Shown here one piece after another: positions 18,601-42,518 of a stretch of 64,000 nucleotides of DNA. The notes under the pieces were generated by a model. That model saw nothing but the letters and a program-made list of their open reading frames with translations, did not search any database and was not told the origin of the DNA. A program made the position numbers and the translations under genes. Numbering within the stretch: position 1 is the first letter of the stretch; each line of letters opens with the position of its first letter. Source of the DNA: Deltaproteobacteria bacterium (GTDB lineage: Bacteria > Desulfobacterota > Dissulfuribacteria > Dissulfuribacterales > QOAL01); assembly GCA_026986785.1 (NCBI GenBank), contig JALSNW010000043.1:9653-73652 (forward strand). Reading direction: 5' to 3'.

Positions 18601-18619
18601 AATTGTTCAGGGGAAAGAT

Positions 18620-19270: not shown

Positions 19271-19272
19271 GC

Positions 19273-20363: not shown

Positions 20364-20364
20364 T

Positions 20365-20634: not shown

Positions 20635-20647
20635 GGAGCAAAGGGCT

Positions 20648-21439: not shown

Positions 21440-21450
21440 AGGATATCCCC

Positions 21451-22536: not shown

Positions 22537-22551
22537 AGGAGCAGCAGAGTC

Positions 22552-24654
22552 ATGACAGCGATTGATGCGGTAAGATCGGTTTGGACAGGTATCCAGATAG
22601 ACAGGAACAACCTCGTAGCAGCGGCTGGGGTCGTAGGGATCCTCCTGATAATGATCTTGCCCCTCCCTGCCCCTGCCCTGGATCTGTTTCTGGCCCTGAA
22701 TATCACCATATCCCTCCTGGTCTTTCTATTGGCCATCTACGTGATAAAACCTCTGGATTTCCCCATTTTCCCTTCCCTGCTCCTTCTGACCACATTGTTC
22801 AGGCTGTCCCTGAATATTGCCTCCACAAGGCTGATACTCCTCCACGGCCATGAGGGTGTAGATGCTGCTGGTAAGATAATTATGGGCTTTGGCCACTTTG
22901 TCGTTGGTGGCAACTTCGTGGTTGGAGGGATAGTCTTTGCCATATTGGTAATCATCAATTTTGTCGTCATCACCAAGGGATCAGGCAGGATTGCAGAGGT
23001 TGCAGCAAGATTTACCTTGGATGCCATGCCAGGAAAACAGATGGCCATTGACGCAGACCTGAACGCTGGTCTCATAGATGAAAACGAGGCCAGGAGGAGG
23101 CGGGAGGAAATAGCCAGGGAATCGGAATTCTACGGGGCCATGGACGGTGCCAGCAAGTTTGTCAGGGGCGAGGCCATAGCAGGCCTTGTAATCATGGCCA
23201 TCAATGTGATTGGAGGATTCATAATAGGTGTACTGCAACAGGACATGCCTGTGGCCAGTGCAGCCCAAAGCTATACGCTTCTAACCATAGGAGATGGCCT
23301 GGTCTCCCAGATCCCTGCACTTATCATATCCACGGCCGCTGGTATTCTGGTAAGCCGTGCGGCATCGAGTGCCAGCATGGGAACAGAATTCATCAAACAG
23401 TTCGCCCTTCACCCACAGGCCCTGGCAGTCACGACCTGTATCGTCTTTCTCTTTGGAATGATCCCTGGCCTTCCAACCATTCCGTTCACTGTCTTGGCAA
23501 TGGGGATAGGCTCCTTGGCCTATGTGGCATTCAGGGAAGAACAAAAGCTGCGAAAAGCCGCGGAAACAGAAGAGGCCCCTGGGGAAGAGGTGGAACAGCC
23601 AGAACCTGGCACACCAGAAGATGTAGAGAAGCTCCTCCAGCTCGACATATTGGAACTCGAGGTTGGTTATGCCCTTATTCCCTTGGTGGATGAGGAACAG
23701 GGAGGGGACCTTCTGGAACGTATAAAGTCCATCAGGAGACAATTTGCCCAGGAAATGGGCATCATCGTCCCCCCACTTCATGTTCGAGATAACCTTCAAC
23801 TCCAACCTGGGCAGTACAGGCTCTTGATAAAGGGGATCGATGTGGCCAAGGGCAACCTGATGACAGGCCATCTCCTGGCCATGAATCCAGGAGATGCGAA
23901 AAAGGAAATCGAGGGCATACCAACCACAGAACCAGCCTTTGGCCTGCCAGCAGTCTGGATAAGAGAAGACCAGAAGGAAGAGGCCCAGCTCGCTGGCTAT
24001 ACTGTCGTAGACCTTTCGACTGTAATAGCCACCCATATTGCAGAAGTAATAAAGAAGAATGCTGCAGATCTCCTTGGCAGACAAGAGGTTCAGCGGCTTC
24101 TCGATGCCCTTGCAAGGACCAGCCCAAAGGCCGTGGAAGAGGTGACCAATGCCCTACCCCTTGGGATAATCCAAAAGGTCCTACAAAATCTTGTCAGAGA
24201 AAATGTATCCATCCGGGATCTCCTCACCATATCAGAGGCATTGGCGGATTATGCAGAGATGACCAAAGACCCGGAGATCCTCACCGAGTATGTGAGACAA
24301 AAGATGGGCAGGGCCATCGTAAAGCCCTATCTGGATGAAGAAGACACCCTTCATGTGATCACCCTCAGCAGTGATATAGAAGATCAAATAAGAAACAGCC
24401 TACAACAAACAGAACACGGGGTCTTTCTCAGCTTAGATCCGGCAGCGGCACAACAGATAATAAATGCTATCAAAAAAGGTGTGGAAGAGGCTGTATCGCA
24501 TGGCTATCAACCAGTCTTGCTCACAAATCCCGTGATAAGACGTCATGTCAGACGGCTCATAGAAAGGTTTATCTCAGAGGCAACAGTACTGTCCCATTCG
24601 GAAATCCCAGGCAATGTCCGCCTCGAATCCATAACTGTCATAACCTTGAGATAA
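22552..24654 (+). CDS. flhA: Flagellar export gate protein FlhA
   Basis: 700 aa. It contains the conserved FlhA block RFTLDAMPGKQMAIDADLNAGLIDE plus a C-terminal cytoplasmic domain. Confidence 0.95.
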   Translation: MTAIDAVRSVWTGIQIDRNNLVAAAGVVGILLIMILPLPAPALDLFLALNITISLLVFLLAIYVIKPLDFPIFPSLLLLTTLFRLSLNIASTRLILLHGHEGVDAAGKIIMGFGHFVVGGNFVVGGIVFAILVIINFVVITKGSGRIAEVAARFTLDAMPGKQMAIDADLNAGLIDENEARRRREEIARESEFYGAMDGASKFVRGEAIAGLVIMAINVIGGFIIGVLQQDMPVASAAQSYTLLTIGDGLVSQIPALIISTAAGILVSRAASSASMGTEFIKQFALHPQALAVTTCIVFLFGMIPGLPTIPFTVLAMGIGSLAYVAFREEQKLRKAAETEEAPGEEVEQPEPGTPEDVEKLLQLDILELEVGYALIPLVDEEQGGDLLERIKSIRRQFAQEMGIIVPPLHVRDNLQLQPGQYRLLIKGIDVAKGNLMTGHLLAMNPGDAKKEIEGIPTTEPAFGLPAVWIREDQKEEAQLAGYTVVDLSTVIATHIAEVIKKNAADLLGRQEVQRLLDALARTSPKAVEEVTNALPLGIIQKVLQNLVRENVSIRDLLTISEALADYAEMTKDPEILTEYVRQKMGRAIVKPYLDEEDTLHVITLSSDIEDQIRNSLQQTEHGVFLSLDPAAAQQIINAIKKGVEEAVSHGYQPVLLTNPVIRRHVRRLIERFISEATVLSHSEIPGNVRLESITVITLR

Positions 24655-24670
24655 AGAATGGAGAAACCGG

Positions 24671-25888
24671 ATGCAGCTTAAAAGATTTACAGCAGAGAAC
24701 ATCTCCAAGGCACTGGAGATGGTAAAGGCAGAACTTGGAAGCAATGCCATCATCCTGAGTACGGAAAAAAAGAGGAAGAAGGATCCAGACTCCAATAGCT
24801 TTGTGAGCTACACCGAAGTAGTTGCTGCAGTGGACAGAAACGAGGGCCTTGGACAGAACAAGGGCAGAGGGCCACTGACCGTTATCTCCCCAAAAGACAC
24901 CAACTCGCACGATGACACTGCCACTCGACTAAAAGACCTGGCCGAGGAAGTCCAGGACATGAAAAAGGCCCTGGCCAGGATATCTGGTCTCTTGGAACGG
25001 GCACTGCTGCAAGAGGAGGACAAGACTCAAGGCTCGCATCCCGAAGGAGATATCAGTAGACACACAGAGATCGACATGGCCCTGTCAACCCTAAAACTCG
25101 ATCCCGAGACCTATAGGATCGTCTCATCTGGCATCCTTTCCTCCTTAGGGCACAGAGATATAACCTACAGCCAGGTGATATCCTGGCTCAAGACCTATAT
25201 AGCCGAACACTTGCATCCTGGGCCAGTGGCAGAGGATTCCCCAGGACCTGTTTGGTGGGCCTTCATCGGTCCTACTGGTGTCGGAAAAACGACAACGCTC
25301 GCCAAAATTGCGGCACGTTTGAAATTCCTGAAAAAACGCAATGGGCTACTCGTAAGCGTTGACTCCTACAGGCTTGGTGCCATAGACCAGTTGAGAAAAT
25401 ATGCTGAGCTCATGGAACTGCCCCTGGAGATTGCCAAAACCAACAAGGATCTTTTGAGAATCTTCAGCATGCACAGGGATAAAGATTTCGTTCTTCTCGA
25501 CACAACAGGTCGAAATCCTTTCACTTCTGCCCACAAGATAGAACTCGAGCGCATATTTGATGCCGTACCGGGACTTATGGCACAGGTCATGCTTTGTTCA
25601 ACATACAAGAGAGAGGACCTTATGGAATCTATCAACTTTTACAGGGGGTTTCCCATAGCAGGCTGGACACTGACCAAGACGGATGAGACGCGGTCTCTTG
25701 CAGCCTCTCTGTTCCCTGTGATCCAGGCTGACCTCCCCCTCTCCTATTTGACCAATGGTCAACGCGTCCCGGAAGATATCGAGATTCCTGAGGGCCGCAA
25801 GCTTTGTGACGAACTGCTCATCTCGTCTTCGGTCGACATAAAAACGAGTTCCCTTGGCATAAGCCATTTGAATGCAACTGTTTGTTGA
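24671..25888 (+). CDS. flhF: Flagellar SRP-like GTPase FlhF
   Basis: G-domain motifs GPTGVGKTTTLAKIA, DSYRLGAIDQL, DTTGRN and LTKTDET. Confidence 0.85.
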   Translation: MQLKRFTAENISKALEMVKAELGSNAIILSTEKKRKKDPDSNSFVSYTEVVAAVDRNEGLGQNKGRGPLTVISPKDTNSHDDTATRLKDLAEEVQDMKKALARISGLLERALLQEEDKTQGSHPEGDISRHTEIDMALSTLKLDPETYRIVSSGILSSLGHRDITYSQVISWLKTYIAEHLHPGPVAEDSPGPVWWAFIGPTGVGKTTTLAKIAARLKFLKKRNGLLVSVDSYRLGAIDQLRKYAELMELPLEIAKTNKDLLRIFSMHRDKDFVLLDTTGRNPFTSAHKIELERIFDAVPGLMAQVMLCSTYKREDLMESINFYRGFPIAGWTLTKTDETRSLAASLFPVIQADLPLSYLTNGQRVPEDIEIPEGRKLCDELLISSSVDIKTSSLGISHLNATVC

Positions 25889-25894
25889 TGTGAA

Positions 25895-26797
25895 ATGACC
25901 ATGAATCAGGCGGCTACATTGAAAGAGTGGAAGAACTACTGCGAAACAGAAAAAGGCGTTACAGCCGAGGACAGGACAGGCCATCTCCCCACACCCGGCA
26001 TCCCGAAGGTGCTCTGCTTCAGTAGTGGCAAGGGTGGAGTAGGCAAAACCAGCATTGTAACCAACCTCGCCATGGCAGTATCGAAAAAGGGGAAAAATGT
26101 CCTTATCCTGGATGCAGACTTAGGGCTGGCAAACGTAGATGTGATGCTGGGCATAACACCAAAGTATTCCATTCAACACGTGTTTTCCGGAGAGAAGACC
26201 CTTTCCGAGATTATAGTAGATGGCCCAGGGGGCATAAAGCTACTACCTGCAAGCTCTGGCATTCAAGAACTATGTCATCTTGACGACAGCGAAAAACTAT
26301 TTTTGCTGAACGAATTTGACACCCTGACACACCCCATAGACATCATGTTCATAGACAATGCTGCTGGAATTTCTGACAGTGTCATGTATTTCAACATGGC
26401 ATCTGAAGAAAGAGTCGTAATTTTGACACCAGAGCCCACCTCCATCACAGATGCCTATGCCTTGATCAAGGTACTTTCCCAGCAATACAGGGTAAGCGAA
26501 TTTTCTATTATCGTAAACTGGAGCAACAGCAAAAAAGAGGCCCAGAACGTCTTCAAGCAACTCACATCGGTTGCCGACCGGTTTCTCGGGTTTCTCTCCT
26601 TCAATTTTCTCGGCTACATCCCCAGGGATCTTTGTATCCCCAAATCAGTACGACAACAAAAGGCTGCCCTGGAATTATTTCCAGCATGTAGGGCCTGTCA
26701 GGAATTTGAAAAGATAGCTGAGACCGTTTTGAGCAATTTTGAGAAAAAGAACGATGGGAACATAAAATTTTTCTGGCAAAATCTGTTGAGGCTTTGA
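25895..26797 (+). CDS. flhG: MinD/ParA-family ATPase FlhG (FleN/YlxH)
   Basis: Deviant Walker A motif SGKGGVGKTS. It sits between flhF and fliA. Confidence 0.85.
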   Translation: MTMNQAATLKEWKNYCETEKGVTAEDRTGHLPTPGIPKVLCFSSGKGGVGKTSIVTNLAMAVSKKGKNVLILDADLGLANVDVMLGITPKYSIQHVFSGEKTLSEIIVDGPGGIKLLPASSGIQELCHLDDSEKLFLLNEFDTLTHPIDIMFIDNAAGISDSVMYFNMASEERVVILTPEPTSITDAYALIKVLSQQYRVSEFSIIVNWSNSKKEAQNVFKQLTSVADRFLGFLSFNFLGYIPRDLCIPKSVRQQKAALELFPACRACQEFEKIAETVLSNFEKKNDGNIKFFWQNLLRL

Positions 26798-27621
26798 AAA
26801 GGATGGCAAGGACAAGTGCAGCACCAAGACTAAAAGATTACACGGAAGAATTCTTTGGCCAAGGAACTACCCTCACCCCAGAGAAAAGGGAAGAACTTAT
26901 CATCAAGTATTCTCCTCTGGTCAACTATGTGGCAAGCAGACTGGCTGGTAGGCTCCCTCCCCATATACTGCCTGAAGACCTCATAGGGCCTGGTATCATC
27001 GGTCTTATAGATGCTATAGAGAAGTTTGATCCTACCAAAAAGATCAAATTCAAGACCTATGCAGAATTCAGGATAAGAGGTGCTATGCTTGACGAGCTTC
27101 GCCACCTCGACTGGGTGCCAAGGTCGGTCCGTAAAAAGGCCACGGAGCTCGAAAAGGTATGTGAAAGGCTGGAAAAAAAGCTTGAAAGGGTGCCAGAAGA
27201 TGAAGAGATAGCCCAGGAAATGGGGATAAGTCTACAACAATATTACAAGCTGCTTGACAAGACCAGAGGGGTAACATTCCTGGACATTGAGGCAATCAGG
27301 AGAAGAATGCCAGATGCCAATGATGAAGACCTTTTCGATCTGATTGCGGATGATGGCGAGAGTGATCCCTTTGAACAATTAAATCTCTCCCAGGTCAAGG
27401 AGATAATCGTGAAGGGCATAAAAACCCTACCTGAGAAGGAAAAGTTGGTGGTCTCTCTCTATTACTTTGAAGATCTTACCATGAAGGAGATCGGAGAAAT
27501 AATGGGTTACACAGAAAGTCGGATATCTCAGATGCATACAAAGGCCATTATAAGGATCAGGGCATATCTATCAGAGAGTTTTTCTAGAGAGGAACTCTCT
27601 GAATTTAAAGAACTTTTTTGA
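26794..27621 (+). CDS. fliA: Flagellar sigma factor FliA (sigma-28)
   Basis: Sigma-70-family regions 2 to 4, with the region 4.2 HTH LTMKEIGEIMGYTESRISQMHTKAI. It overlaps flhG by 4 nt. Confidence 0.85.
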   Translation: MKRMARTSAAPRLKDYTEEFFGQGTTLTPEKREELIIKYSPLVNYVASRLAGRLPPHILPEDLIGPGIIGLIDAIEKFDPTKKIKFKTYAEFRIRGAMLDELRHLDWVPRSVRKKATELEKVCERLEKKLERVPEDEEIAQEMGISLQQYYKLLDKTRGVTFLDIEAIRRRMPDANDEDLFDLIADDGESDPFEQLNLSQVKEIIVKGIKTLPEKEKLVVSLYYFEDLTMKEIGEIMGYTESRISQMHTKAIIRIRAYLSESFSREELSEFKELF

Positions 27622-27708
27622 TTTTATATTTTTCATGCCCGCTTCCCCTAATGAAAGAGTCCTGAAAGTACGATTAAGAGATTAACAACACTGACCAGGA
27701 GGAAATAA

Positions 27709-28089
27709 ATGGCCATCGATTATAATATGACCGTAATGATTGTAGATGACTTCGCTACCATGCGAAGAATTGTCAAAAATATCCTTACTCAACTTGGTTT
27801 CAAGAACTTCGTGGAGGCGGATGATGGATCAGTAGCATGGGAGATGCTCCAAAAACAGCCAGTGGATTTCATAGTTTCCGACTGGAATATGCCAAAGATG
27901 ACTGGTATAGAACTCCTCAAGAAGGTACGTGCCGATGAAAAGCTCAAGGACACCCCATTCCTTATGGTAACCGCTGAGGCCCAGAAGGAAAATATCATTG
28001 AGGCGGTCAAGGCCAGGGTAAGCAATTATATTGTCAAGCCCTTTACCCCAGAAACCCTGGGCGAAAAAATAGACAAGATCTTCAATTAA
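27709..28089 (+). CDS. cheY: Chemotaxis response regulator CheY
   Basis: 126-aa stand-alone receiver domain: MIVDDFATMRR, phospho-acceptor context SDWNMPKMTG, and YIVKPF. Confidence 0.85.
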   Translation: MAIDYNMTVMIVDDFATMRRIVKNILTQLGFKNFVEADDGSVAWEMLQKQPVDFIVSDWNMPKMTGIELLKKVRADEKLKDTPFLMVTAEAQKENIIEAVKARVSNYIVKPFTPETLGEKIDKIFN

Positions 28090-28100
28090 GATTGTGAAAA

Positions 28101-29255
28101 ATGGGTGAGCCGGCCGTTGACAAAAACACATCTGTCTCTGAAGCCCTGGAAGAAATAAATCAACAGATGGAAGATCTAAATACCAACTCAAAACAAGAAG
28201 AAAATCAGGCCAGCGAACCCTCCAGTGAATCTGACACCAATGAGCAGGAGCTGAATCTAAGCGCAGAGGAGCCGCCTGACTTTGAAGATATTGAAAAATT
28301 GATAGACTCAAAGGATGAAACCGATGGAGGAGACCAGAAAGAAGAGGTCTCTGAACCCGAGACTGTACCAAAGGACGAAGGCCAAGACGATACCCTCTCC
28401 AGCGATGACGAAGCACATATAGACATAACCGATGACGAACTGTGGGAAGACGACGATGTAGAAGAAATCCCCTTGTTCGAAGAAGAATTCCTGGAACAGG
28501 AACTCGAAGGCGACAACAAGAAAGAGGGCACTCCAGATGCCGATATATCTGAACCGAGTTCCCAACAAGAAGGTGGCGAGGATCCATCTGCCAGCACAGA
28601 TCCAGAGATAGAGAAATCTACAGGAAAAAAGCAGGCTACGACACAAGACGATATACAAGATGAAACAATAGCCCCCTCTGTAAAGACAGATCTGGAAGAA
28701 CAGGCTTCAAACGACCCAACGGGAAAAAGCATTGTATCTGAAAAGGTCCCTGGCAAGTTCATTGGTGTCTTGCCCTGGATAATATCAGCCGTCTCTGGCA
28801 TCCTTTGCGTATTGGCCATTGTCACGCTCTTGTTGATATCCTCAGGCCCTGCCGTACAAGGAGAGAATCCTGAAAGGCCTGTCACCAAACAAGCCATCAA
28901 GAAGGCCGTACAGAAAAACATTCCATCCCTGGCTCATGGACCAGTAAGGGGCACGGTCCAGGCAATCGACCTGGCCCCTTTTCTCATACCAGCTCAAAAT
29001 GCAGGTGAGCTCGTCTTCTTCAAGTTGAAAGTGGAGCTGATCGTACCCAATGCCACAACAAAGCAGGAACTTCTCAAGAGAGAGGCCTGGGTACGGGACA
29101 TAATCTATCAAGAACTCAAGGGGATAAATATATCAGGGGGCATAAGAGGAGATATACTCAACCATTATCGTCGCCCCATATTAAACCGACTAAACAAGGA
29201 GATGGCGCCATTACGAATAGAAGACGTGAGACTCATGGGCTTTCTTCTTCGATAA
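28101..29255 (+). CDS. FliL-domain membrane protein with a ~215-aa highly acidic cytoplasmic N-terminal tail
   Basis: By hand count, about 72 of the first ~219 residues are D or E. One TM follows (FIGVLPWIISAVSGILCVLAIVTLLLISS). The C-terminus follows the FliL pattern (DLAPFLIP...GELVFFKLKVELIV...REAWVRDIIYQEL...IEDVRLMGFLL). Confidence 0.6.
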   Translation: MGEPAVDKNTSVSEALEEINQQMEDLNTNSKQEENQASEPSSESDTNEQELNLSAEEPPDFEDIEKLIDSKDETDGGDQKEEVSEPETVPKDEGQDDTLSSDDEAHIDITDDELWEDDDVEEIPLFEEEFLEQELEGDNKKEGTPDADISEPSSQQEGGEDPSASTDPEIEKSTGKKQATTQDDIQDETIAPSVKTDLEEQASNDPTGKSIVSEKVPGKFIGVLPWIISAVSGILCVLAIVTLLLISSGPAVQGENPERPVTKQAIKKAVQKNIPSLAHGPVRGTVQAIDLAPFLIPAQNAGELVFFKLKVELIVPNATTKQELLKREAWVRDIIYQELKGINISGGIRGDILNHYRRPILNRLNKEMAPLRIEDVRLMGFLLR

Positions 29256-29276: not shown

Positions 29277-29537
29277 ATGCCTGGCGATTCTGTAAACGAG
29301 GTATATCCATTGAGCCAGCTCCGGCCCATCACCCCCCATCCATCTGATGTACGGCAAGAACGAAAAAGACAAAGGAAAAAAGACGGCAAAAAAGAAAAGC
29401 GGAAAAAAAATGCCCCCCACAAAGACCGGGTAAGCCTTGGAAAGGGCCACTCTGACAAACAAACCCTACCCAAGAAACCAGCCAAAGGGCCACCCAAGAA
29501 TGAAAAAAAGAAAAGGGGTATAGACATCAAGATCTAA
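29277..29537 (+). CDS. Small polybasic protein (hypothetical)
   Basis: 86 aa, of which 27 are K or R by hand count (RQERKRQRKKDGKKEKRKKN...). It is same-strand and 21 nt downstream of the FliL-like gene. Whether it is coding is uncertain, and its 3' end overlaps the convergent DUF72 gene by 11 nt. Confidence 0.4.
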   Translation: MPGDSVNEVYPLSQLRPITPHPSDVRQERKRQRKKDGKKEKRKKNAPHKDRVSLGKGHSDKQTLPKKPAKGPPKNEKKKRGIDIKI

Positions 29538-30297
29538 ACCCTGCTACCCCCTCCTCTTCAAGCATCTGTAAAAAAATCAAGGCATCCTTTGCCGCACTCC
29601 CGTCATCGGTATTATCAAAATATACAAAGGCCTCCCTTTCTGATGCCCTTACCAGATCCACCCATTTTTGAAGCCCTTGCCTGCCGTACAGGCCCCTGTA
29701 GAGCTGACTGTGTCCATGAAGCCTGATATAGGTAAAATCAGCAGTGAAGGTCTCAAGCATGGGATATCTACCTGCCAACTCGCTAATCGTCCAGGCAATG
29801 TTCCTATCCTTTAACCTTTCGAGCATCCTATCGGAAAACCATGAACTGTGCCTGGCCTCCAATGCGATCTTCACATGCCTGGGAAGTAGATCCAAAAATT
29901 TCAGAAAGACTTGCTCATTGTATTTCAGGCCAGGGGGGAGCTGAAAAAGTACAGCGCCGAGCTTTTCTCCAAGGAGACTCACCTTGTCAAAAAACATATC
30001 AATCGACGCCCTTTCCACATCCAACCGCCTGATATGGGTTATGAACCGCGAGGCCTTTACCGACCACAAAAAGTCCTCTGGTGTTCGGCTATACCAGCCC
30101 CTCCAGGTCTTTTCAGGAAAGCTCCTATAGAAAGATGCATTCAGTTCCACCGTATCAAAAAACTTGGCATAGGTCTCAAGATACCTGCGTTTTGGTGTAC
30201 CTGGTTCATAAATGGTACCGATGAAACTTTCATAGTTCCATCCACTTGTACCAACATGAACGGGATGAAAATTATTGACATGCTCTGTCTTTTCCAT
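29527..30297 (-). CDS. DUF72 (YecE-like) domain protein
   Basis: Family-typical N-terminus HVGTSGWNYESF...YLETYAKFFDTVELNASFYR...FLWSVKASRFITH. Confidence 0.85.
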   Translation of the reverse strand: MEKTEHVNNFHPVHVGTSGWNYESFIGTIYEPGTPKRRYLETYAKFFDTVELNASFYRSFPEKTWRGWYSRTPEDFLWSVKASRFITHIRRLDVERASIDMFFDKVSLLGEKLGAVLFQLPPGLKYNEQVFLKFLDLLPRHVKIALEARHSSWFSDRMLERLKDRNIAWTISELAGRYPMLETFTADFTYIRLHGHSQLYRGLYGRQGLQKWVDLVRASEREAFVYFDNTDDGSAAKDALIFLQMLEEEGVAGFRS

Positions 30298-30322: not shown

Positions 30323-33172
30323 CTATTCCAGGAATTCCTCTAAGACCAACTTGACCCTCTGATATTCTCGAACGATATCGGCAAACAATCCTTTGGCGCC
30401 ATTCATCCTACCGCTCCTGGCCATCTTTTCCATTTTGAGGCAAAGGCTACTCAGAGTCGTGGCACCCATGAAACCGCTACTACCCTTGAGAGAATGGGAG
30501 TTGAACCGCAACTTTTCAGGGTCTTCTTCAGATACTGCCTGTTCCATCCCATCTATATATTCCTGGCTGTTGTGCAAAAATTTGACAACCGACTTGGCAA
30601 AGAACTTTCTGCCCGAATGCCTTTCCAGCATCCTCAACTCCTCAATGACACTGAGATCTATCGGCCCCTTGGACTGCCCTTCTTTGCCTTCTGATTTCTC
30701 GCCCGAAGGCCCTTCAGAAACATCATCATTTCGACCCTGCTTGGAGGATTCGAAATAGTGCTGCCACTTCCTCAGCTTATCTGCCAGTTCCTCTATCTTG
30801 AAGGGCTTTGCAATATAGTCGTCCATGCCAGATGCAATACACTTCTTTCTGTCCCCCTCCATGGCATAGGCCGTAAGGGCTATCACTGGGATACGTCTAC
30901 CGTCTGCCCTTTCCTCCTCCATCTTTCTATATCTTCTCGTTGTCTCATAACCATCGAGGACAGGCATCTGGCAGTCCATGAGGATGATATCAAACTCCTT
31001 TTCTTTGAGGACATCCAAGGCCTCGCTGCCATTTTCGGCAAGTACGGCATCGCAGCCCAGGGTTGAAAGCACAGTCATACAAAGCTCCTGGTTAACAGGA
31101 TTGTCCTCTACAAGAAGTACCTTCATGCCTTTTAGTTGACCCCCGGCCTTGCTCCATCTCTTTCCTGCCTCAACTGGCCTCTTCTCATCCTTTCTCTTTT
31201 TATCATGCGAGGAAAGCGCCTTTATGAGGGATTCGTTCATGGAGGCCTTCTTCAAGATTACCACGCTGTCTCCAAAATCCCTGCGGGCAACATTCACATC
31301 CTTGACAAGGACCATTACTGAGACGTTTTCATGCCTTTCCAAAATATCCTGAAGTCCTATGACGTTCTCCCCCCTTTTCATCTCGGATCTGACGCAGTCT
31401 TCATCCAATATCAACCAGAGGCCTTTTGCCCTATGCATCTGTTCAGAAAGGATACTTTCTGCCTCTGAGAATGAATCTGTAAAAAAGTGTTCCCCTGGGC
31501 TACTGCCCAGGATGGCTGCAATTGCCTCTTTCAAAAAGGAATTGGCAGTGACTGTTATTACGGTTGGACATGGAGTTGTCTCTGTCTCCTTGACGATCTT
31601 ACTACCTGGTGCCTCCTCAAATTCCAATACATAGCTGAAACGGGACCCCTTGCCCGGTTGACTTTCGACCATGATTTCACCACCGAGCTTCTGGACCAGG
31701 CCCTTAACGATGGCCAAACCGAGCCCTGTACCATCGTAGGATTTCGATGCAGATTCATCACCTTGAGAAAAGGCATCAAAAATATTCTTGAGCCTCTCTT
31801 TTTCGATCCCTATTCCCTTGTCTTCGACCTCCAATAAGACCCTTATGCTCTGACCGTCTCTGGCGACCTTTTTCATCCTCAAGATCACATCGTTGCCATT
31901 CGAAAACTTGACAGCATTACCAATGAGATTGATAAGGATCTCCTTTATCTTGTCCTCATCTCCAACAATTGGCACTGGGATCGAATGATCATAACTGAAA
32001 TATATACAGATACCCTTTTTGTCTGCCTCCACAGAAAGTAACTGCACAACCTCAAGGCCTGCCTCTTTCAGGGAAAAATCCGTCTTCCTGACTGTAATCT
32101 TACCGGCCTCCAGGGTCGACAACTCAAGGATGTCATTGATGATGTTTAAGAGTATCTGGCCCGACTTCAATATCCCCTGGATGAATGGCAGCTGCTCTGG
32201 GCTGGGATTTGCCTGGAGCAGTAATTCCGCCATGCCAATCACGCCATTCATGGGGGTCCTGATTTCATGACTCATATTGGCCAAAAACTGGCTCTTGACC
32301 ATTGATGCCCTTTCTGCCTCTTCCTTTGCCTTCTTGTATTTAGCAACAAGGCGTTCAAGTTCGAGATTGGCCCGGGACAGCTCCTCCGTCCTTTCCTTCA
32401 CCCTTTTTTCGAGCTGTTCTCCGTGGGTCCTCAACAGATCGTCCCTACTCTGGATCTTTTCCAGCATCATATTGAAATGAGCCATGAGATCACCGAGTTC
32501 ATCATCGCTGGTCTTTTCCACCCTGAGGGAATAATCTTTTTCATCCGAGATCCTTTTCATGGAAGAAACCAATTGCTGTATGGGCTGGACCAATTTGGTG
32601 CTTACGTATTTCGATATGAACATGGACAAGCCCACGAGAAAAAGCCACATGAAAAAAGACATTATGACCGTGGATATAAATGCGTGGAAGAAACCAGAAA
32701 GATCCTGTCTCAGCCATATAAGACCTATCCTTTCTCCCCGAAAGATCACGGGCTCGAACGTATCCATGAACCGCTGAAAGTAAACCGCAATGCCCGTATC
32801 TTCAGGCAAGGAGTCATCTTTTGCGCCAATAAAGGCCTTGATGTGCTCTATTGATGGTGTGAGATCGGCAGAATAGGGCCTTAGACAGGCCAACACGTCA
32901 CCTTTTGAATTAAAGATACAGGCCTGAGCGATCTCTTCGACGGATCTCAGGGCCGAAAGGGAATCCTTGGCAGCCTCTTTATCGTCGAAAAATATTGCGG
33001 CCGCGCTATTCGAACCAACTGTCCTGGCCAGGACAGAGGCCTGAAGTCTCTGTTGGGCATGGCCAGAGACAAAAAGATATCCCAGGAAAAAAAAGGTTGC
33101 CCCTGCAAGGACCACAGAAGCGATCAGGGTCATATAGAGCATCAGCTTGAATCGGATAGAAAAGGGTTTCAT
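30323..33172 (-). CDS. Hybrid (unorthodox) sensor histidine kinase: TM, periplasmic CHASE8-like domain, TM, HAMP, HisKA, HATPase, pseudo-REC, REC, Hpt
   Basis: H-box [18 protein letters not shown] (His302), G-box [16 protein letters not shown] domain [12 protein letters not shown]...[14 protein letters not shown]...YIAKPF, and Hpt motif [15 protein letters not shown]. The N-terminal ~125-aa extracytoplasmic domain lies between two TM segments. Confidence 0.9.
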
Positions 33173-33768
33173 TTGATCACACGCTTTGCAAGCTTCAGCA
33201 GCCTGCTGCTGATCTTCAGCTTACTGCCCTTAATGTTTCGCAGGCTTATAGCAAATCTTATTTTGTCTTCTTCCTTATACAGGGCGATAATCACGCCTTT
33301 TTCCAGGGAATCCATGCCTTCCGCAACGGTTAGAACATCTTTTTTGGCCAATGCCCTCAGGGTCTTCTCATCAAAAGGTTGATCCCTTGAAATCACCAAG
33401 ACATTCACATTATCTATATCGCACCTACCTGAGATATGTTTAATTTCTATGAATCTATCCTGGCTCTTTCTCCCCTCCAACTTCTTGATGGCAGTCATCA
33501 TGGAGTCATCTCCCCAATAACCAATAACCAGTTTATCAGCTGGTCCTGAAGGATCCGGCCACTGCACGAACTTGGTAAAATTATAGATGAAGGCTGCCTT
33601 TACATCCTCTTCCAGGTGTATGGGCTTTTCTGCTGACACGGATTGGATTGTGACAAAAACAGGTAAAAGGGGAAATAACACTCCCCACAAAACGGCCTTA
33701 GGCCACCTAAAAAGCAGTAAGACCATTGAAATATGTATGGTTTGATCTTTTGTCTTCAAAATTTCCAA
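33169..33768 (-). CDS. YfiR-family (DUF4154) periplasmic protein
   Basis: Signal/TM segment followed by [16 protein letters not shown]...VLVISRD...[19 protein letters not shown]...[25 protein letters not shown]. This fits the DUF4154/YfiR pattern as I recall it. It has an ATGA overlap with the kinase gene. Confidence 0.7.
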
Positions 33769-35816
33769 GTCACCTTGCCATAAACTGAACGAGGAATCTC
33801 AGTGGAAATCAATTGGAGAAACCTGTCACGGAATTCCGGATGGTATGGGTCCAAAAGATCCTTCCCTACCACGGAAAACTCGAGGTTCTCAAGGGGACAC
33901 CAACCCAACCTCACGTCTAGGCCTGTATAGGCAGGTATGTCAAGCCGACCGAGACTCGATACGTATCTCAACCAGATATCCAGTTCCAATTCCCTGTTGA
34001 TATTCATGTTGGAGCGCACAGAAAACTGATGTTCCGGTGCCTCCATATCTTTGGCAACGACTCCAGTATAGGCCCTGCTCTTTGCATCCACCCAGTAATT
34101 GGTATTCAAATAAGAATAGGAGGCCTCTATACGCCACCAGTCCAAGGGCTTGAAGTTTCCTGTCATCTCCAGGCCGAAATTGTCTGCCTTGCCATGATTT
34201 CCAGGTACTATGGGCTTAATAGGGATATCATCCTGCTCAACAATCTCTTTAGATCTTGCAGAAAACAGGTCGTCATAGAAATATGCAAAGGCTGTTATAT
34301 CCAAAGACAGCTTCTTGCAGACACTCCACCTGTAACCCGTCTCTACAGCCCATAGCTCCTCGCTATTGAAATCTTCACTACCCGCAAACGCCAGAATAGC
34401 AGGCCTGGATCTCCCCTTCTCCCGTTTGGTCCCAAGGATCCATATGGCATCCCGGTTATAGCGACTCGGTATCCTGACAGCCCTCGACAGGGCAACCCAC
34501 AGATCTTGATGGGCTGTCAGGTTGTAAATCGCCCTTGCTGTTGGCTCCAACTCCATACCTGTATAGTTGTTGTGATCCAGCCGAATACCCAAGAGCAGGC
34601 GCAGCCTATTGTGAAAAAATCCTATTTCATCCTGGAGAAACAGGCTGAAAAGATCATCCTTCCTGGATCTTGGGATAAATGCCCCCACATGCCCTCCATG
34701 TGGTACTGGAATATCATCCCATGTATGCCTATAGGCCAGTCCCCAGAGCAAATCGTTGAACCCCAAGAGCTGGAAACGGTGCTGAAACTCGAAATCCAGG
34801 GTATCCCTGGACTCTGCACCCATCTCCGACAATTTTCTATCCGAATGATCGTAATAGAACTGGAAAGAAAATTCGGCCAGGCCATCCAAGGCATGGGCCC
34901 AGCGGGCCAGTATATTACCCCCTGATACAGGCAGATCTGTTTCCCAAGTCTGTCTATGAAGGAATGAATCGTCGTAACCAAGGACATGGCTCGTGCCTTC
35001 TCCACTAAAGATATCTCCCTGAACAGTAGCCGAATCCCTTGGGGAAAGATTCCAGTCAGAGTGGAAACCCGATCTGATCATGCGCCAGTCATCCCATGCA
35101 CTTACTCCCTTTTCTGTATCCTGAGGACCTCTTTCGAAGGCCTTGGCATAAAAACGAATCGCCCCTCTGTCTCCGATACCGAAACCGTACCTCACCGAAC
35201 CGAAACCCCTTTCCAGGCTACCCACGCCTCCGGCCACGAGACCTCCCTTGGTTGACCAGGCATCCTTTGTAATAATATTTATGACGCCATTTACAGCATT
35301 GGTCCCCCAACTACTCGCCCCCGGCCCCCTTATCACCTCTATCCTCTCTATATCCTCGAGCATAGTGTCCTGGGAATTCCAAAAAACACCTGAAAAAAGG
35401 GGATCGTACAGGGTTCTGCCATCCATGAGGACCAAGAGTTTGTCTGAAAATATGCCGTTAAACCCCCTGATCGAGACAGCCCAGTTGCCATTATCTATCT
35501 TGGCAACATTGACCCCTGGAACCATTCTGAGAAGCTCCGGGATCGACGTGGCCCCAGAACGCCTTATATCTTCTTGGGTTATGACAAAGACTGCTGCTGG
35601 CGTGTTCTTTATACTTTGGGGTTTCTTGAATGCAGAAGTGACCTCCAGATTCATCAATTCTTCAAGACTCATGGAAAACAGACCATCTTTTCCCTTTTCT
35701 GCTGCAAAAGCAGGCCATGGAGAAAAAAAGGGACCAAATCCAACCCATAGAAAAACCGCCAGGGTCAATACTACGACTGAGACCAGTGAATGGAATCCTT
35801 GATTTGTTTTACACAT
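33756..35816 (-). CDS. TonB-dependent outer-membrane receptor
   Basis: Signal peptide, plug domain (TPAAVFVITQEDIRRSGATSIPELLRMVPGVNV...IEVIRGPGASSWGTNAVNGVINIITK), a long beta-barrel region, and a terminal aromatic residue (VTWKF). Confidence 0.85.
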   Translation of the reverse strand: MCKTNQGFHSLVSVVVLTLAVFLWVGFGPFFSPWPAFAAEKGKDGLFSMSLEELMNLEVTSAFKKPQSIKNTPAAVFVITQEDIRRSGATSIPELLRMVPGVNVAKIDNGNWAVSIRGFNGIFSDKLLVLMDGRTLYDPLFSGVFWNSQDTMLEDIERIEVIRGPGASSWGTNAVNGVINIITKDAWSTKGGLVAGGVGSLERGFGSVRYGFGIGDRGAIRFYAKAFERGPQDTEKGVSAWDDWRMIRSGFHSDWNLSPRDSATVQGDIFSGEGTSHVLGYDDSFLHRQTWETDLPVSGGNILARWAHALDGLAEFSFQFYYDHSDRKLSEMGAESRDTLDFEFQHRFQLLGFNDLLWGLAYRHTWDDIPVPHGGHVGAFIPRSRKDDLFSLFLQDEIGFFHNRLRLLLGIRLDHNNYTGMELEPTARAIYNLTAHQDLWVALSRAVRIPSRYNRDAIWILGTKREKGRSRPAILAFAGSEDFNSEELWAVETGYRWSVCKKLSLDITAFAYFYDDLFSARSKEIVEQDDIPIKPIVPGNHGKADNFGLEMTGNFKPLDWWRIEASYSYLNTNYWVDAKSRAYTGVVAKDMEAPEHQFSVRSNMNINRELELDIWLRYVSSLGRLDIPAYTGLDVRLGWCPLENLEFSVVGKDLLDPYHPEFRDRFLQLISTEIPRSVYGKVTWKF

Positions 35817-36423
35817 ACAGGCCTCTTTCTCTTGGGGGAAAGTTTAAAAGACCAAGACACCTTGTCCTTTCTTAGGATCACAAAATATGTACCAACTGGC
35901 CATGCTAAAACGAGCCCAATATGACTTTCACGATCCGTCATCACCTGACACCAAGGACAAAGACTGTTTGCACCATGGTTTCAAAATGGAGAATTTCTTC
36001 ATATTGCACTGACCCACAGCCAACAAATGCGTATTGAACAGGCTCATCTATCCAAATTGGTTCCCCTCTGATCCAGAAAAGACAAGCTATGCTTCACGTC
36101 ATCAAAAAAGAATGGATGTCCTCCCTTTGATCCCAATTATGCACTTCAAGCACCTGGGAAGAGTAACTCCTCTAAATGATTGGAGGGTTAACATGAACTT
36201 GATCCCATTGCATCTTCATCCAAAGTGAAGTCCAATTCGTGATTAATCCTCAGGCATTCGAAGCCTCAAGGAGCTCACAAGTTTGCCGAATCTGATGTGT
36301 TGTCGGGCAGTTGAAATATCAAGATACGCCTGTGTACCATCCTCCATACATCTTCGCCAAGCTTGTGAGCTGCATGATCCAGGGTGATTGAAATGTGAAA
36401 AAACTCCCCCGATTGCTTTTTAT

Positions 36424-36451
36424 TTATCACAAGTTTTAGAAGATGTATAAT
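36424..36451 (+). promoter_or_regulatory. Candidate sigma-70 promoter for the nitroreductase operon
   Basis: TTATCA (-35, 4 of 6 matches), a 16-nt spacer, then TATAAT (-10, perfect). It lies ~75 nt upstream of the ATG at 36527. Confidence 0.35.
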
Positions 36452-36526
36452 ATAATGTAACAAAAAATAGACACTTTCGACAAACAAAAAAATCTCTTAT
36501 ATACCTATGGAGGGTCTTCTACTGCC

Positions 36527-39047: not shown

Positions 39048-40547
39048 ATGGCTATTGTTGTTAACACCAATATCGCTTCTATCAATGCCCAGAGAAATCT
39101 CGTAGGTACTGGTAAACTTCTCCAAAGGTCCCTTCAAAGACTTTCCTCAGGTCTCAGGATCAACAGCGCAAAAGACGACGCGGCAGGACTTGCCATTTCA
39201 GACCGGATGAATGCCCAGGTTCGTGGGCTCAACCAGGCTGTAAGAAATGCAAACGACGGCATCTCCCTGGCACAGACCGCTGAAGGGGCAATGCAGGAGA
39301 CAACCAACATCTTGCAGCGTATGAGGGAATTGGCAGTTCAGTCGGCCAATGATACCAACACCGCAACCGACAGATCCAACCTGCAGAAAGAGATAACCCA
39401 GCTCCAGGCAGAGATAGATAGGATTGCCACTACAACTGCATTTAATGGTAAGACCTTGCTTAATGGCACATTTACAGCAGCCAAATTCCACGTCGGTGCA
39501 AACGAAAATCAGTACATCTCCTTTTCCATCGGTAGCACGAAGGCCTCTGATATCGGCAACAATACCGTTGGCATAAATGGCACACTGAACCAAGCAACCG
39601 CCGCCGCGAATTCAGCTCCAGGAAACGGTGTGGCCGATGGTGAGGATCTGACCATCGTGGGCTCACTTGGCACTGCAACCTATGATGTATCAGCAGATGA
39701 AACGGCCAAATCAATTGCAGAAGGCATAAATGCCACCACAAAAGACAGTGGGGTCTCAGCTACAGCCATAACCAAGGCAAAACTCAGTTCTGTAAGTGCC
39801 AGCGGCCAAGTTAGCTTCAAACTCTATGGCAAGAACTCTACTGCGGCCACCATCTCGGTAAATGTTGCATCCACAAGTGATCTTTCCGGCCTAGCCGATG
39901 CCATCAACAAGGTTGCAAGCACAACCGGTATCTCGGCAGAGGCAAATGGTGGAGAATTGACCTTGGTGAGCTCGGAAGGATACGATATCAAGATCGAGGA
40001 CTGGGGTCAAGATTCTGGTGGAGATGACATCGATGTGAGTGTCCAGGGGCTCAAGGCTGATGGAAGCAATGCTGGTTCTGCAGTAACACTCACAGGTGCT
40101 GCTGCTGACGATACAGACAGCACAACCATTGGTGGAACCATTACATTCCAGTCTGCAGAAAGCTTTACAGTAACAGCTGGTGCCACCGGGGCCCTCTTCA
40201 CATCCACCAATGCCAATGCGAGCACTTTGAGTGCCGTTGGTTCCGTAGATATCGGGACACAGGAAGGTGCCAACAGTGCGATCTCGGTCATAGATGGTGC
40301 CCTTCAATTCATCGATAATACCAGGGCTGATCTCGGTGCCATCCAGAACCGCTTCGAATCCACCATTGCAAACCTGATGAATGTCTCCGAGAACATCTCT
40401 GCGGCCAAATCTCGAATACTCGATGCAGACTTTGCTGCCGAGACCGCAAACCTCACAAAGGCACAGATCCTGCAGCAGGCTGGTACAGCCATGCTTGCCC
40501 AGGCAAACACCGTGCCACAGGCAGCACTGACCCTGCTTCAGGGCTAA
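39048..40547 (+). CDS. fliC: Flagellin
   Basis: The N-terminus is MAIVVNTNIASINAQRNL...LSSGLRINSAKDDAAGLAISDRM. The conserved C-terminus is ...IQNRFESTIANL...AETANLTKAQILQQAGTAMLAQANTVPQAALTLLQG. Confidence 0.95.
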   Translation: MAIVVNTNIASINAQRNLVGTGKLLQRSLQRLSSGLRINSAKDDAAGLAISDRMNAQVRGLNQAVRNANDGISLAQTAEGAMQETTNILQRMRELAVQSANDTNTATDRSNLQKEITQLQAEIDRIATTTAFNGKTLLNGTFTAAKFHVGANENQYISFSIGSTKASDIGNNTVGINGTLNQATAAANSAPGNGVADGEDLTIVGSLGTATYDVSADETAKSIAEGINATTKDSGVSATAITKAKLSSVSASGQVSFKLYGKNSTAATISVNVASTSDLSGLADAINKVASTTGISAEANGGELTLVSSEGYDIKIEDWGQDSGGDDIDVSVQGLKADGSNAGSAVTLTGAAADDTDSTTIGGTITFQSAESFTVTAGATGALFTSTNANASTLSAVGSVDIGTQEGANSAISVIDGALQFIDNTRADLGAIQNRFESTIANLMNVSENISAAKSRILDADFAAETANLTKAQILQQAGTAMLAQANTVPQAALTLLQG

Positions 40548-40564
40548 TATCACGTGGTGACATA

Positions 40565-40593
40565 GAAACAAGGCAGCCAAGCTGCCTTGTTTC
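40565..40593 (+). terminator. Stem-loop after fliC (intrinsic terminator or attenuator)
   Basis: GAAACAAGGCAGC-caa-GCTGCCTTGTTTC forms a perfect 13-bp stem with a 3-nt loop, 18 nt after the fliC stop. The 3' flank is only weakly U-rich. Confidence 0.55.
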
Positions 40594-40625
40594 TCCAACA
40601 AATCTACGATAGAAGAGGATTCATC

Positions 40626-42044
40626 ATGGGCATAGGCGTATCTGGACTCATGTCGGGCCTCGACACCGATTCCATCATCTCGAAATTGATGGAGGTGGAA
40701 AAGCGCCCTATAGTGCAACTTCAGAACAAAGAGGCGGGCTACCAGGCAAAGATTACCGCACTTGGCATGGTAAAAAGTGCCATGTCTGACCTGAAGACCG
40801 CAGTCGATGCCCTCAAGTATTCGGATGATTTTTCTTCATACACTGCCTCGAGCAGCGATACCGATATACTCACGGTCTCTGCAGATGATGATATTCAACC
40901 TGGCGCCTATAATGTGGTTGTCAGCCAACTCGCCTCAGCCCAACAATTGAGAAGCTCTGCCTTTTCTGGCTCTGATACCTCTGTGGGCACAGGCACCCTC
41001 ACCATCCAGGTAGGGAGCAATGATGCTGTGGACATAGAAATCGACAGCTCTCACGATACCCTTGCTGGCATTGCCCGGGCGATAAATGAATCAGATGCAG
41101 ATGTCACAGCTGGCGTTATCAACGACGGTAATGGCAATTACTATCTAACCCTGCTCAGTCAAGATACCGGTGCGTCAAACACTATCAGTGTTACCATACA
41201 GGATGACGATGGGAACAATGACGATTCTTCTGGCCTCTCTGGGATCTATACAGACCCAACCGCCCATACCTTGACAGAGACAAGGCAGGCAGCAAATGCC
41301 CAGCTCTCTGTCAATGGTATATCAGTAGAACGCTCGAGCAATGAGATAGATGACCTCATCGAGGGCATGACCATAAATCTCAAAGCTGCAGACGACACAA
41401 AGACCATCACCGTTACCAGCTCGAAAAACTATAATGGGATTACGGACAAGCTCAATAAATTCATCAAGAACTATAATGCCCTCATAGATACACTAAAGGA
41501 ACAAACCGCTTACAATCCGGCAACCAAGCAGGGCGCTGTCCTCCTCGGTGATAGCACGGTCAGCCGAATAGGCCTTGGTCTTTCAAAAATGATCTATGAA
41601 ACAGTTGACGGGGTGGATTCTTCAGTCAACAGTCTCAGCAAGCTCGGTATCGAGGTCGACGACAGTGGACACCTCAGCCTTGACAACAATAAATTGAACG
41701 ATGCCATGGAGGCTCATCCAGACGATGTAGCCGAGTTTTTCACAGCAGATGATGCGGAAAACAAGGGGATAGCAGTCAGACTATATGACTTTTTGGATGG
41801 ATATCTAAAGAGTTCTACGGGTATCCTCACCGCAAAGACAGACGGGCTTCAGGACTCTATAGACGATATCGAGGACAGGATTGATCAGATGAATTTTCGC
41901 CTCTCAAAAAGGGAAGCGAACCTCAGACATCAATTCGAGACCCTTGAAACACTCATGCAACAGTTTCAACAGACCTCGGGGCAGCTTGACCAGCAATTGA
42001 GTTCACTGAGCAACCTGAATGCCTATATATCCAAGAAAAAATAG
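40626..42044 (+). CDS. fliD: Flagellar filament cap protein FliD
   Basis: The N-terminus is MGIGVSGLMSGLDTDSIISKLMEVEKRPI, followed by the FliD C-terminal region. The track start at 40587 lies inside the terminator hairpin, so I chose the ATG at 40626, which has GAAGAGGA upstream. Confidence 0.9.
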   Translation: MGIGVSGLMSGLDTDSIISKLMEVEKRPIVQLQNKEAGYQAKITALGMVKSAMSDLKTAVDALKYSDDFSSYTASSSDTDILTVSADDDIQPGAYNVVVSQLASAQQLRSSAFSGSDTSVGTGTLTIQVGSNDAVDIEIDSSHDTLAGIARAINESDADVTAGVINDGNGNYYLTLLSQDTGASNTISVTIQDDDGNNDDSSGLSGIYTDPTAHTLTETRQAANAQLSVNGISVERSSNEIDDLIEGMTINLKAADDTKTITVTSSKNYNGITDKLNKFIKNYNALIDTLKEQTAYNPATKQGAVLLGDSTVSRIGLGLSKMIYETVDGVDSSVNSLSKLGIEVDDSGHLSLDNNKLNDAMEAHPDDVAEFFTADDAENKGIAVRLYDFLDGYLKSSTGILTAKTDGLQDSIDDIEDRIDQMNFRLSKREANLRHQFETLETLMQQFQQTSGQLDQQLSSLSNLNAYISKKK

Positions 42045-42058
42045 GAGAACAACCGGCC

Positions 42059-42514: not shown

Positions 42515-42518
42515 GGTC

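Follow-up and report, generated by a model that had tools for sequence, protein, structure and literature searches.

What does a TonB-dependent receptor (TBDR) contribute when its gene is followed, on the same strand, by genes for a periplasmic protein of the YfiR type and for a hybrid sensor histidine kinase, and do the three work as one device? The question is raised by positions 30323 to 35816 of a 64-kb stretch of contig JALSNW010000043.1 (hereafter the window, meaning all 64,000 nucleotides analysed), which comes from an uncultured organism known from a metagenome-assembled genome only. Listing and translation of the open reading frames (ORFs) place three consecutive ORFs on the minus strand here. 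An original prediction, made from the letters and the ORFs, had assigned them to a kinase (30323-33172), a DUF4154 protein (33169-33768, the longest ORF) and a TBDR (33756-35816), coordinates that the sequence bears out, and had read the locus as a variant of the YfiBNR system. The three genes and their parts are these:

33756-35816, minus: TBDR, 686 amino acids, with signal peptide, TonB box, plug and beta-barrel and without an STN domain (Pfam, NCBIfam, hydropathy)
35628-35684, minus: TBDR residues 45-63 (GLFSMSLEELMNLEVTSAF), a conserved N-terminal segment and then the TonB-box-like NLEVTSA, just before the plug (alignment)
35283-35612, minus: TBDR plug domain, residues 69-178 (Pfam PF07715)
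33169-33726, minus: YfiR-like periplasmic protein (DUF4154), 185 amino acids from the ATG at 33726, or 199 from the alternative TTG at 33768 (Pfam, NCBIfam, AlphaFold2, public gene call P0001)
30323-33172, minus: hybrid sensor histidine kinase, 949 amino acids, with a first transmembrane (TM) segment, CHASE8, a second TM segment, HAMP, HisKA, HATPase, degenerate receiver (REC), REC and Hpt (Pfam, NCBIfam, hydropathy)
32696-33058, minus: periplasmic CHASE8 domain of the kinase, residues ~39-159 (Pfam CHASE8; between the sole two hydrophobic segments)
32987-33004, minus: sensor motif A57-A-A-I-F-F62, counterpart of the YfiN 'AAVVF' motif (alignment of paired sensors)
31157-31540, minus: degenerate first receiver (pseudo-REC), residues ~545-672 (alignment with the first REC of relatives)
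30773-31120, minus: intact receiver domain, residues 685-800, phospho-acceptor D733 (Pfam Response_reg, E = 6.1e-27; motif positions)
30353-30583, minus: Hpt domain, residues 864-940, with H893 in HSLKGSS (Pfam Hpt, E = 2e-15)

We conclude, with a probability of roughly three in four, that these genes form a single signalling unit, the YfiR-like protein acting within it on the kinase's CHASE8 domain. In YfiBNR, periplasmic YfiR represses YfiN, and the outer-membrane lipoprotein YfiB sequesters YfiR and so relieves that repression. The system (TpbB/DgcN; Pseudomonas aeruginosa, E. coli) shares with the window locus a periplasmic protein of the DUF4154/YfiR fold encoded beside a CHASE8-HAMP inner-membrane sensor, the hydrophobic interface residues of both partners, and an outer-membrane protein in the same operon. 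It differs in its outer-membrane partner, which is the OmpA/Pal-like lipoprotein YfiB where the window has a 686-residue TBDR; in its output, which is the GGDEF domain of YfiN where the window has a HisKA-HATPase-REC-Hpt phosphorelay; in its YfiR, which has two disulphide pairs where the window protein has one cysteine, ~20% identity and 30 of the 85 bits set by the true-YfiR model; and in gene order. The operon neighbours here are the TBDR and a DUF72 protein. The analogy is thus sound for the YfiR-like/CHASE8 core and speculative for the TBDR.

The core begins with the middle protein, whose proposed YfiR/DUF4154 identity was upheld by a Pfam match (DUF4154, 'YfiR/HmsC-like', E = 1.2e-34) and by its predicted fold. 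An AlphaFold2 model from a 34-sequence alignment (pLDDT 88) returned YfiR for all of the top 15 Foldseek matches in the PDB, with a TM-score of ~0.7 to the YfiR crystal structures at ~20% identity, and a profile of the family reached PDB YfiR at E = 4e-14. The protein falls short of the true-YfiR model NF053586 (sequest_YfiR; 30 bits, cut-off 85), narrowly misses NF053591 (118.4 bits, cut-off 125) and is 27% identical to TOL_0243. It has a single N-terminal hydrophobic segment, with a signal peptide that would end at about SVSA/EKP, and one cysteine, in GRCDID; YfiR has two conserved cysteine pairs that serve redox and stability control (PMC4655355). A profile search of 1.84 billion representatives gave 30,557 clusters at 50% identity with E ≤ 0.001 and 12,626 with E ≤ 1e-30, the family so counted including classical YfiR. 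Many of the top matches (P0235-P0242, P0245, P0246 and others) are 340 to 550 amino acids long with two to three DUF4154 stretches, and are thus tandem-duplicated YfiR-like proteins. A single-domain 'substrate-binding protein' of Rhodothermus (PDB 5z6v, 8wgl) was a weaker fold match and was missed by the family profile, so we do not count it as a member; its genes are reported near genes for methyl-accepting chemotaxis proteins (MCPs), which makes it an interesting analogue.

The other half of the core is the sensor end of the kinase. Hydropathy gives two hydrophobic segments only (residues ~8-38 and ~160-188), bracketing ~120 residues, and Pfam places CHASE8 at residues 44-154 (53.2 bits, cut-off 27) and finds HAMP (40 bits, cut-off 25) as well as HisKA, HATPase_c, one Response_reg and Hpt. 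The extracytoplasmic CHASE8-like domain between two TM segments, then HAMP, that had been read from the letters is therefore there. The periplasmic domain of YfiN, formerly called 'PAS', has likewise been reclassified as CHASE8 (PMC8085984). Residues 5-241 of the kinase score 127.6 bits against NF053592 (cut-off 194), and the periplasmic domain is ~13 residues longer than the family norm.

Contact between the two proteins is suggested by residues on both sides. The YfiN motif 'AAVVF' is predicted to bind YfiR, and YfiR F162 with the C-terminal helix lies in a genetically mapped hydrophobic interface (PMC3375315). In the sensors paired with YfiR-like proteins, F62 of the corresponding motif is invariant (33 of 33), and conservation reaches at least 90% at N55 and A49; in the YfiR-like protein, F158 and LLKLA align with F162 and VLKLA of YfiR when the family profile is set against it. 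Conservation within the YfiR-like family peaks in the N-terminal helix region and in the C-terminal segment, which in YfiR make up the conserved surface that binds YfiB and, as predicted, YfiN (PMC4655355). A correlative mirror-tree test, with distances over 42 triads, gave r = 0.63 (Spearman 0.53) for the YfiR-like protein against the N-terminal region of the sensor, as compared with r = 0.31 (Spearman 0.11) against the kinase core of the same polypeptide and r = 0.36 (Spearman 0.20) against the TBDR. Because co-divergence is stronger with the sensor N-terminus than with either of the others, it supports a specific, co-evolving YfiR-like/CHASE8 contact, and together with the retained interface residues it makes binding of the YfiR-like protein to CHASE8 a well-supported prediction. 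The inner part of the module, with its DUF4154 protein, its CHASE8-HAMP sensor and both sides of the interface kept, is thus homologous to the YfiR-YfiN core, as the original prediction had it.

That the TBDR gene belongs with this pair is suggested by gene neighbourhoods. Homologue look-ups found the same arrangement at 63%, 50%, 39% and 33% identity of the YfiR-like protein, and in unrelated flanking contexts, a Thermoanaerobaculia contig among them. A scan of species-representative genomes with the 34-homologue alignment gave 548 relatives, from which 79 loci from at least eight phyla were kept; all their ORFs were annotated by phmmer and jackhmmer searches that took the domains of the window proteins as queries. 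Of the 72 loci whose upstream sequence was long enough, 51 (phmmer) or 48 (jackhmmer) have a same-strand TBDR gene directly before the YfiR-like gene, and two more upstream ORFs missed by phmmer are TBDRs by Pfam. A CHASE8-type sensor follows the YfiR-like gene directly in 68 of 76 loci, and the full adjacent triad of TBDR, YfiR-like protein and sensor is present in 47 (first count) or 46 (second) of the 70 loci with room on both sides. The TBDR-linked form occurs in Desulfobacterota, Acidobacteriota, Verrucomicrobiota, Planctomycetota, Bacteroidota, Nitrospirota, Armatimonadota and Gammaproteobacteria. Approached from the other side, three of three TBDRs chosen by TBDR similarity alone (from Zhongshania arctica, Methylobacillus sp. 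MM3 and a metagenomic contig) have a DUF4154 gene and a CHASE8 sensor gene downstream. The neighbourhood check that had been proposed for this locus thus finds the triad co-conserved across phyla, from the YfiR-like side and from the TBDR side.

The departures from the triad are informative. Nine Marinobacter loci have the YfiR-like gene, the kinase and a small REC protein without a gene for an outer-membrane partner; in four loci (L014, L025, L035, L081) a barrel of 340 to 440 residues of the non-TonB family Phenol_MetA_deg replaces the TBDR upstream of the YfiR-like gene; and in two Moraxellaceae loci (L016, L042) the order is YfiR-like, kinase, TBDR. Geomonas limicola (L007/L051) and Nitrosomonas (L064, L077) have TBDR and YfiR-like pairs, sometimes twice in tandem, without an adjacent CHASE8 sensor, so the outer two components can travel without it.

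Much of this has a precedent, and on that account the original prediction overstated the novelty of the locus. The comparative genomics of Malone et al. in 2012 found yfiR-yfiN pairs lacking YfiB to be commoner with distance from Pseudomonas, and found the GGDEF output often swapped for GGDEF-EAL, Hpt, a sensor kinase or an MCP, with the interface residues kept; the authors proposed an ancient modular 'YfiR-YfiN[PAS] core' (PMC3375315). Their pairs came from Opitutus, Acidobacteria, Geobacter, Rhodothermus and Desulfobacterium, with outputs that included a hybrid kinase, and the window's pair fits this core exactly (PMC3375315). What differs is the outer membrane: the word 'TonB' occurs 0 times in PMC3375315, where no TBDR is named as an outer-membrane component and the description is in silico. 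The triad itself is recorded in three NCBIfam models, NF053590 (TOL_0244), NF053591 (TOL_0243) and NF053592 (HK_near_YfiR_like), which describe the same three proteins in the same arrangement and are annotation models only, carrying no mechanism. They are the specific best match of all three window proteins, each under its cut-off (628.5/645, 118.4/125 and 127.6/194 bits, respectively), and the gene order TBDR, YfiR-like, CHASE8 sensor, adjacent and on one strand, is found in the window as in the trio. Among the relatives, L066 from Methylococcaceae clears all three cut-offs and L017 from Desulfobacteraceae clears two, including that of NF053590. Since the 2012 work and these models already record the module, the locus is best regarded as a new, slightly divergent member of it.

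The TBDR has the general marks of its class in its sequence: a TonB-box-like segment, a plug (Pfam PF07715, E = 7.7e-24, 84.7 bits) and a C-terminal beta-barrel that ends in an aromatic residue (...VTWKF). Its residues 46-686 align with positions 2-604 of the 604 in NF053590 (628.5 bits, a near miss of the cut-off of 645), and its single N-terminal hydrophobic segment in a hydropathy scan fits a signal peptide. Pfam finds the plug and the barrel alone, with no STN domain, and leaves ~30 residues between signal peptide and plug. Within that space stands NLEVTSA, which we take to be the TonB box by its likeness to DTLVVTA-type boxes, preceded by the conserved stretch DLxxLSLEELM. In the columns of this stretch and the box a residue is present in 66 of 67 aligned TBDRs, with L54 kept in 66 of 66, E52 in 59 of 66 and V59 in 58 of 66. 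The exemplar TOL_0244 carries the same N-terminal motif; variants of it occur in proximal and in tandem paralogues, and it is absent from the unrelated TBDR of L088. We considered the motif as a marker of association with YfiR and rejected it because the tandem paralogues carry it too.

The nearest solved relative of the receptor is CirA (E = 1.6e-21). The sequences of TOL_0243 and TOL_0244 come from a proteomics paper on Thalassolituus oleivorans, which reports TOL_0244 at a 7-fold higher level on the n-C28 alkane. TOL_0244 is compared there with OmpS of Alcanivorax dieselolei (B5T_01485), at 40.3% 'similarity', and OmpS is reported to be a TBDR that acts as an alkane sensor and triggers chemotaxis genes. 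OmpS shares with our protein the class of TonB-dependent receptor, with a reported signalling role; no Alcanivorax protein stood among the top TBDR matches, and the texts and supplements examined held no information on the neighbours of ompS. We treat it as a lead, not as a match.

At the other end of the module, the kinase keeps all of its phosphorelay residues (H302, D733, K789, H893 and the N, G1 and G2 boxes). Its best general NCBIfam matches are BarA (435 bits, cut-off 890) and TorS (432.9 bits, cut-off 676.5), and it reaches the equivalog level of neither. No Pfam model matches the pseudo-REC, even with E relaxed to 10. When eleven related hybrid kinases are aligned, it lines up with the genuine first REC of L017, L066, L046, L073 and L068, and in the window's lineage the acidic pair DD has become TA and four residues are deleted; the label it had been given is justified by that alignment and by the lost pair.

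Across the 79 loci the outputs vary widely. A homologue search with the sensor domain returned one protein, and the census was built instead from the HMM annotation of the loci, where CHASE8-HAMP is joined to a plain kinase in 29, to kinase and REC in 20 and to kinase, REC and Hpt in 10, as well as to HisKA_2, GGDEF and GGDEF-EAL. For seven of the ten hybrid kinases with REC and Hpt, the next gene encodes a REC-(PAS)-GGDEF(-EAL) regulator, five of these being confirmed by Pfam. In Methylobacillus sp. MM3 (L089, 4516-15929) the TBDR and the YfiR-like gene are followed by a CHASE8-HAMP MCP, and the surrounding cheW-cheR-cheW cluster holds three further MCP genes, the input module being wired there to chemotaxis. 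The output of the window locus had been described as a phosphorelay rather than a GGDEF domain: the kinase does lack GGDEF, and the contrast is softened by the seven relatives that precede a REC-GGDEF(-EAL) gene. The claim that the window has no cognate response regulator, TonB/ExbBD or sigma/anti-sigma pair needs a similar qualification. Domain searches and a reading of the translations found no TonB, ExbB, ExbD, extracytoplasmic function (ECF) sigma factor or anti-sigma factor in the window, whereas a flagellar operon 2 to 3 kb from the triad holds a CheY-like single-domain receiver (27709-28089), the sole other receiver domain in the window, and sigma-28 FliA (26794-27621), its sole sigma factor; the absence is thus true of dedicated partners only. 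We found no evidence for the CheY-like receiver as the target of the Hpt domain, its gene lying in the flagellar operon on the other strand.

From these pieces one could envision the following pathway. By homology, the YfiR-like protein would be exported, bind the CHASE8 domain through a hydrophobic interface of the YfiR-YfiN type and set the activity of the kinase. The TBDR, in the account that we prefer, would be a dedicated gate in the outer membrane that brings a small molecule into the periplasm, where the molecule would bind the YfiR-like protein, whose fold is half that of a periplasmic binding protein, and change its hold on CHASE8. To judge from the sequence, the signal would then pass through HAMP to HisKA/HATPase and from H302 to D733 and H893 of the Hpt domain, before it reaches a response regulator whose gene lies elsewhere. 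By analogy with the relatives, that regulator would most likely be of the REC-GGDEF-EAL type, and because of this the final output of this copy is likely to be turnover of cyclic di-GMP.

The logic of the gate step would resemble that of TorT/TorS or LuxP/LuxQ, except that the ligand would have an outer-membrane entry of its own. In those systems too a soluble periplasmic protein of the binding-protein type, encoded beside a hybrid kinase, controls it through the periplasmic domain; they differ in having a two-lobe binding protein where we would have a single-lobe YfiR fold, CHASE8 and the additional outer-membrane receptor, so the resemblance is one of logic only, not of family.

That the TBDR admits a ligand which the YfiR-like protein reports to the kinase is a tentative proposal, held at a little under even odds, and we favour it because the outer-membrane partner is interchangeable or dispensable, because the TBDR has no periplasmic domain and because its co-divergence with the YfiR-like protein is weak. 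In keeping with a conduit, the barrel is swapped in the four Phenol_MetA_deg loci and lost in the nine of Marinobacter while the YfiR-like/sensor pair persists, the TBDR keeps its TonB-box-like segment and plug, and TOL_0244 rises on n-C28.

A number of points weigh on the other side. The co-divergence test is correlative and uses 42 saturated sequences at a mean distance of ~65%. With one cysteine only in the window's protein, the disulphide-dependent behaviour of YfiR is not transferable to it. The 64-kb window holds no GGDEF or EAL domain anywhere, and hence no REC-GGDEF-EAL gene. Literature searches (DUF4154 with TonB, YfiR-like, CHASE8) yielded no study of the triad, no experiment and no ligand, so that the earlier statement that no TBDR/DUF4154/sensor triad has been characterised mechanistically holds within these searches. 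In the two Moraxellaceae loci the TBDR gene stands where yfiB stands in yfiR-yfiN-yfiB. Lastly, N-terminal conservation of the kind seen at L54 is not explained by a pure conduit role, and the YfiR-like protein could dock on the segment.

Such docking is at the centre of the alternative from which the original prediction set out, namely that the YfiR-like protein represses the kinase and that the ligand-bound TBDR captures it, as YfiB captures YfiR, and thereby de-represses the kinase. One could suppose that the TBDR frees its N-terminal segment (DLxxLSLEELM and the TonB box) into the periplasm, where the segment takes hold of the YfiR-like protein by strand addition. That this conserved surface can capture a peptide has a precedent, since YfiB grips YfiR through an unwound N-terminal strand that places a methionine in a hydrophobic pocket of YfiR (PMC4655355), and the unusual conservation of the segment, its absence from an unrelated neighbouring TBDR, the Moraxellaceae gene order that mirrors yfiR-yfiN-yfiB and the tight synteny seen from both the YfiR-like and the TBDR side would all accord with it. 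We nevertheless consider it unlikely: the TBDR can give way to a non-TonB barrel or be missing altogether, its co-divergence with the YfiR-like protein is weak (as above), the motif is present in tandem paralogues that adjoin no yfiR-like gene, and beyond the short N-terminal segment nothing in the TBDR corresponds to the periplasmic OmpA-like domain of YfiB.

Were capture nonetheless to occur, it would amount to trans-envelope signalling without an STN domain, an anti-sigma factor or an ECF sigma factor. FecA/FecR/FecI likewise couples a TBDR genetically to a trans-envelope signalling pathway; it differs in using STN, a FecR-like anti-sigma factor and an ECF sigma factor, none of which is in the window, where a YfiR-like protein and a CHASE8 kinase stand in their place. 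The triad would then be a third general TonB-dependent route across the envelope, on which the receptor would signal that it holds its ligand by capturing or releasing a soluble periplasmic repressor through the N-terminal segment by the TonB box, and with a single input device that, from one bacterium to another, would drive two-component, cyclic-di-GMP or chemotaxis outputs. We think this improbable, and somewhat more so than capture at this locus.

It is also improbable, and again somewhat more so than capture, that the YfiR-like/CHASE8 pair senses the state of the envelope or its redox balance alone, as the YfiB-less YfiNR of Salmonella and Dickeya does, with the TBDR no more than a transporter that is co-expressed or regulated and contributes nothing to the signal: it is common for YfiNR pairs to lack an outer-membrane partner (PMC3375315), and the partnerless Marinobacter loci and the sensorless pairs of Geomonas and Nitrosomonas would suit such a reading, but a TBDR directly upstream on the same strand in 48 to 51 of 72 loci over at least eight phyla, and a full triad in three of three cases approached from the TBDR, would be hard to explain without a functional link, and the missing cysteine pairs make disulphide redox sensing unlikely here.

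The module matters chiefly as a class. The YfiR-like family is very large, and kinases, hybrid phosphorelays, GGDEF/EAL enzymes and chemoreceptors, that is, all the main bacterial signalling outputs, are found behind the same three-part input. The mechanism of one member would explain thousands of loci, and one solved member would show how a TBDR feeds signalling without the parts of FecA/FecR/FecI. The window's own copy adds little to this, being somewhat divergent, with a decayed first receiver and with its presumed cyclic-di-GMP regulator not nearby.

The gene junctions allow a finer look at the operon, which has these neighbouring features:

35817-36526, no strand: intergenic region of 710 bp upstream of the TBDR gene, divergent from a nitroreductase gene (Rfam, promoter scan)
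29527-30297, minus: DUF72 (YecE-like) gene, 25 nt downstream of the kinase gene (Pfam DUF72, E = 9.1e-64)

The DUF4154 and kinase genes do overlap by ATGA at 33169-33172, as had been noted, and a 4-nt start/stop overlap of the YfiR-like and sensor genes recurs in 17 of 69 related loci, which also accords with contact between the two proteins. The 13-nt overlap claimed for the TBDR and DUF4154 genes (33756-33768) stands if TTG 33768 is the start and falls with the public gene call (P0001, 185 amino acids, identical product), which begins at ATG 33726 and leaves a 29-nt gap after the TBDR gene. Nine of 55 relatives share the -13 geometry; it puts the start codon on a conserved Trp codon near the TBDR C-terminus and may therefore arise without being used. 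We thus regard the geometry as partly forced by that codon and the YfiR-like protein as starting at either TTG 33768 or ATG 33726.

Upstream of the triad, a Shine-Dalgarno sequence with a good match (AAGAGG) lies 6 nt before the TBDR ATG at 35816. A consensus scan of the 710-bp leader gave no minus-strand sigma-70-like promoter match. No Rfam family was found at gathering thresholds across the whole window, with chance-level matches only in the leader, and a regulatory RNA upstream of the TBDR was rejected on these grounds. The same region contains an inverted repeat (36266-36377; 25-nt arms, 84% complementary, 62 nt apart) without an Rfam match. A block of ~45 nt (36410-36455) is near-identical in the window, L002 and L009, though their proteins are ~63% identical; it coincides with a plus-strand promoter-like TTATCA-16-TATAAT (10 of 12 matches), a site that probably serves the nitroreductase gene and not the triad.

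Downstream, the DUF72 gene is probably co-transcribed with the kinase. It follows the kinase in L002 and L009, with flagellar flanks, and in L003/L004, with leucine-biosynthesis flanks, and is not found beside the other triads; as it accompanies the kinase in the window's own lineage only (five loci), we rejected it as a general fourth gene of the module.

The triad lies between two flagellar blocks, 17083-29255 (fliL-fliM-fliN-fliPQR-flhBAF-flhG-fliA-cheY) and 39048-43273 (fliC-fliD-flaG), a placement shared by L002 and L009. Directly after the CheY-like gene, 28101-29255 (plus) encodes a very acidic protein of 384 residues with one hydrophobic segment and no Pfam match, whose position is kept in L002. 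Elsewhere in the window, 51191-54010 (minus) encodes a 939-residue Hsp70-like protein with a C-terminal DUF3731 'DnaK-related' domain, followed by a DUF3592 membrane protein at 50721-51194 (minus), and 4079-4603 (plus) encodes a 174-residue protein of the recently defined DUF7826 repeat family (E = 3.4e-51), beside a gene resembling AI-2E-type transporters.

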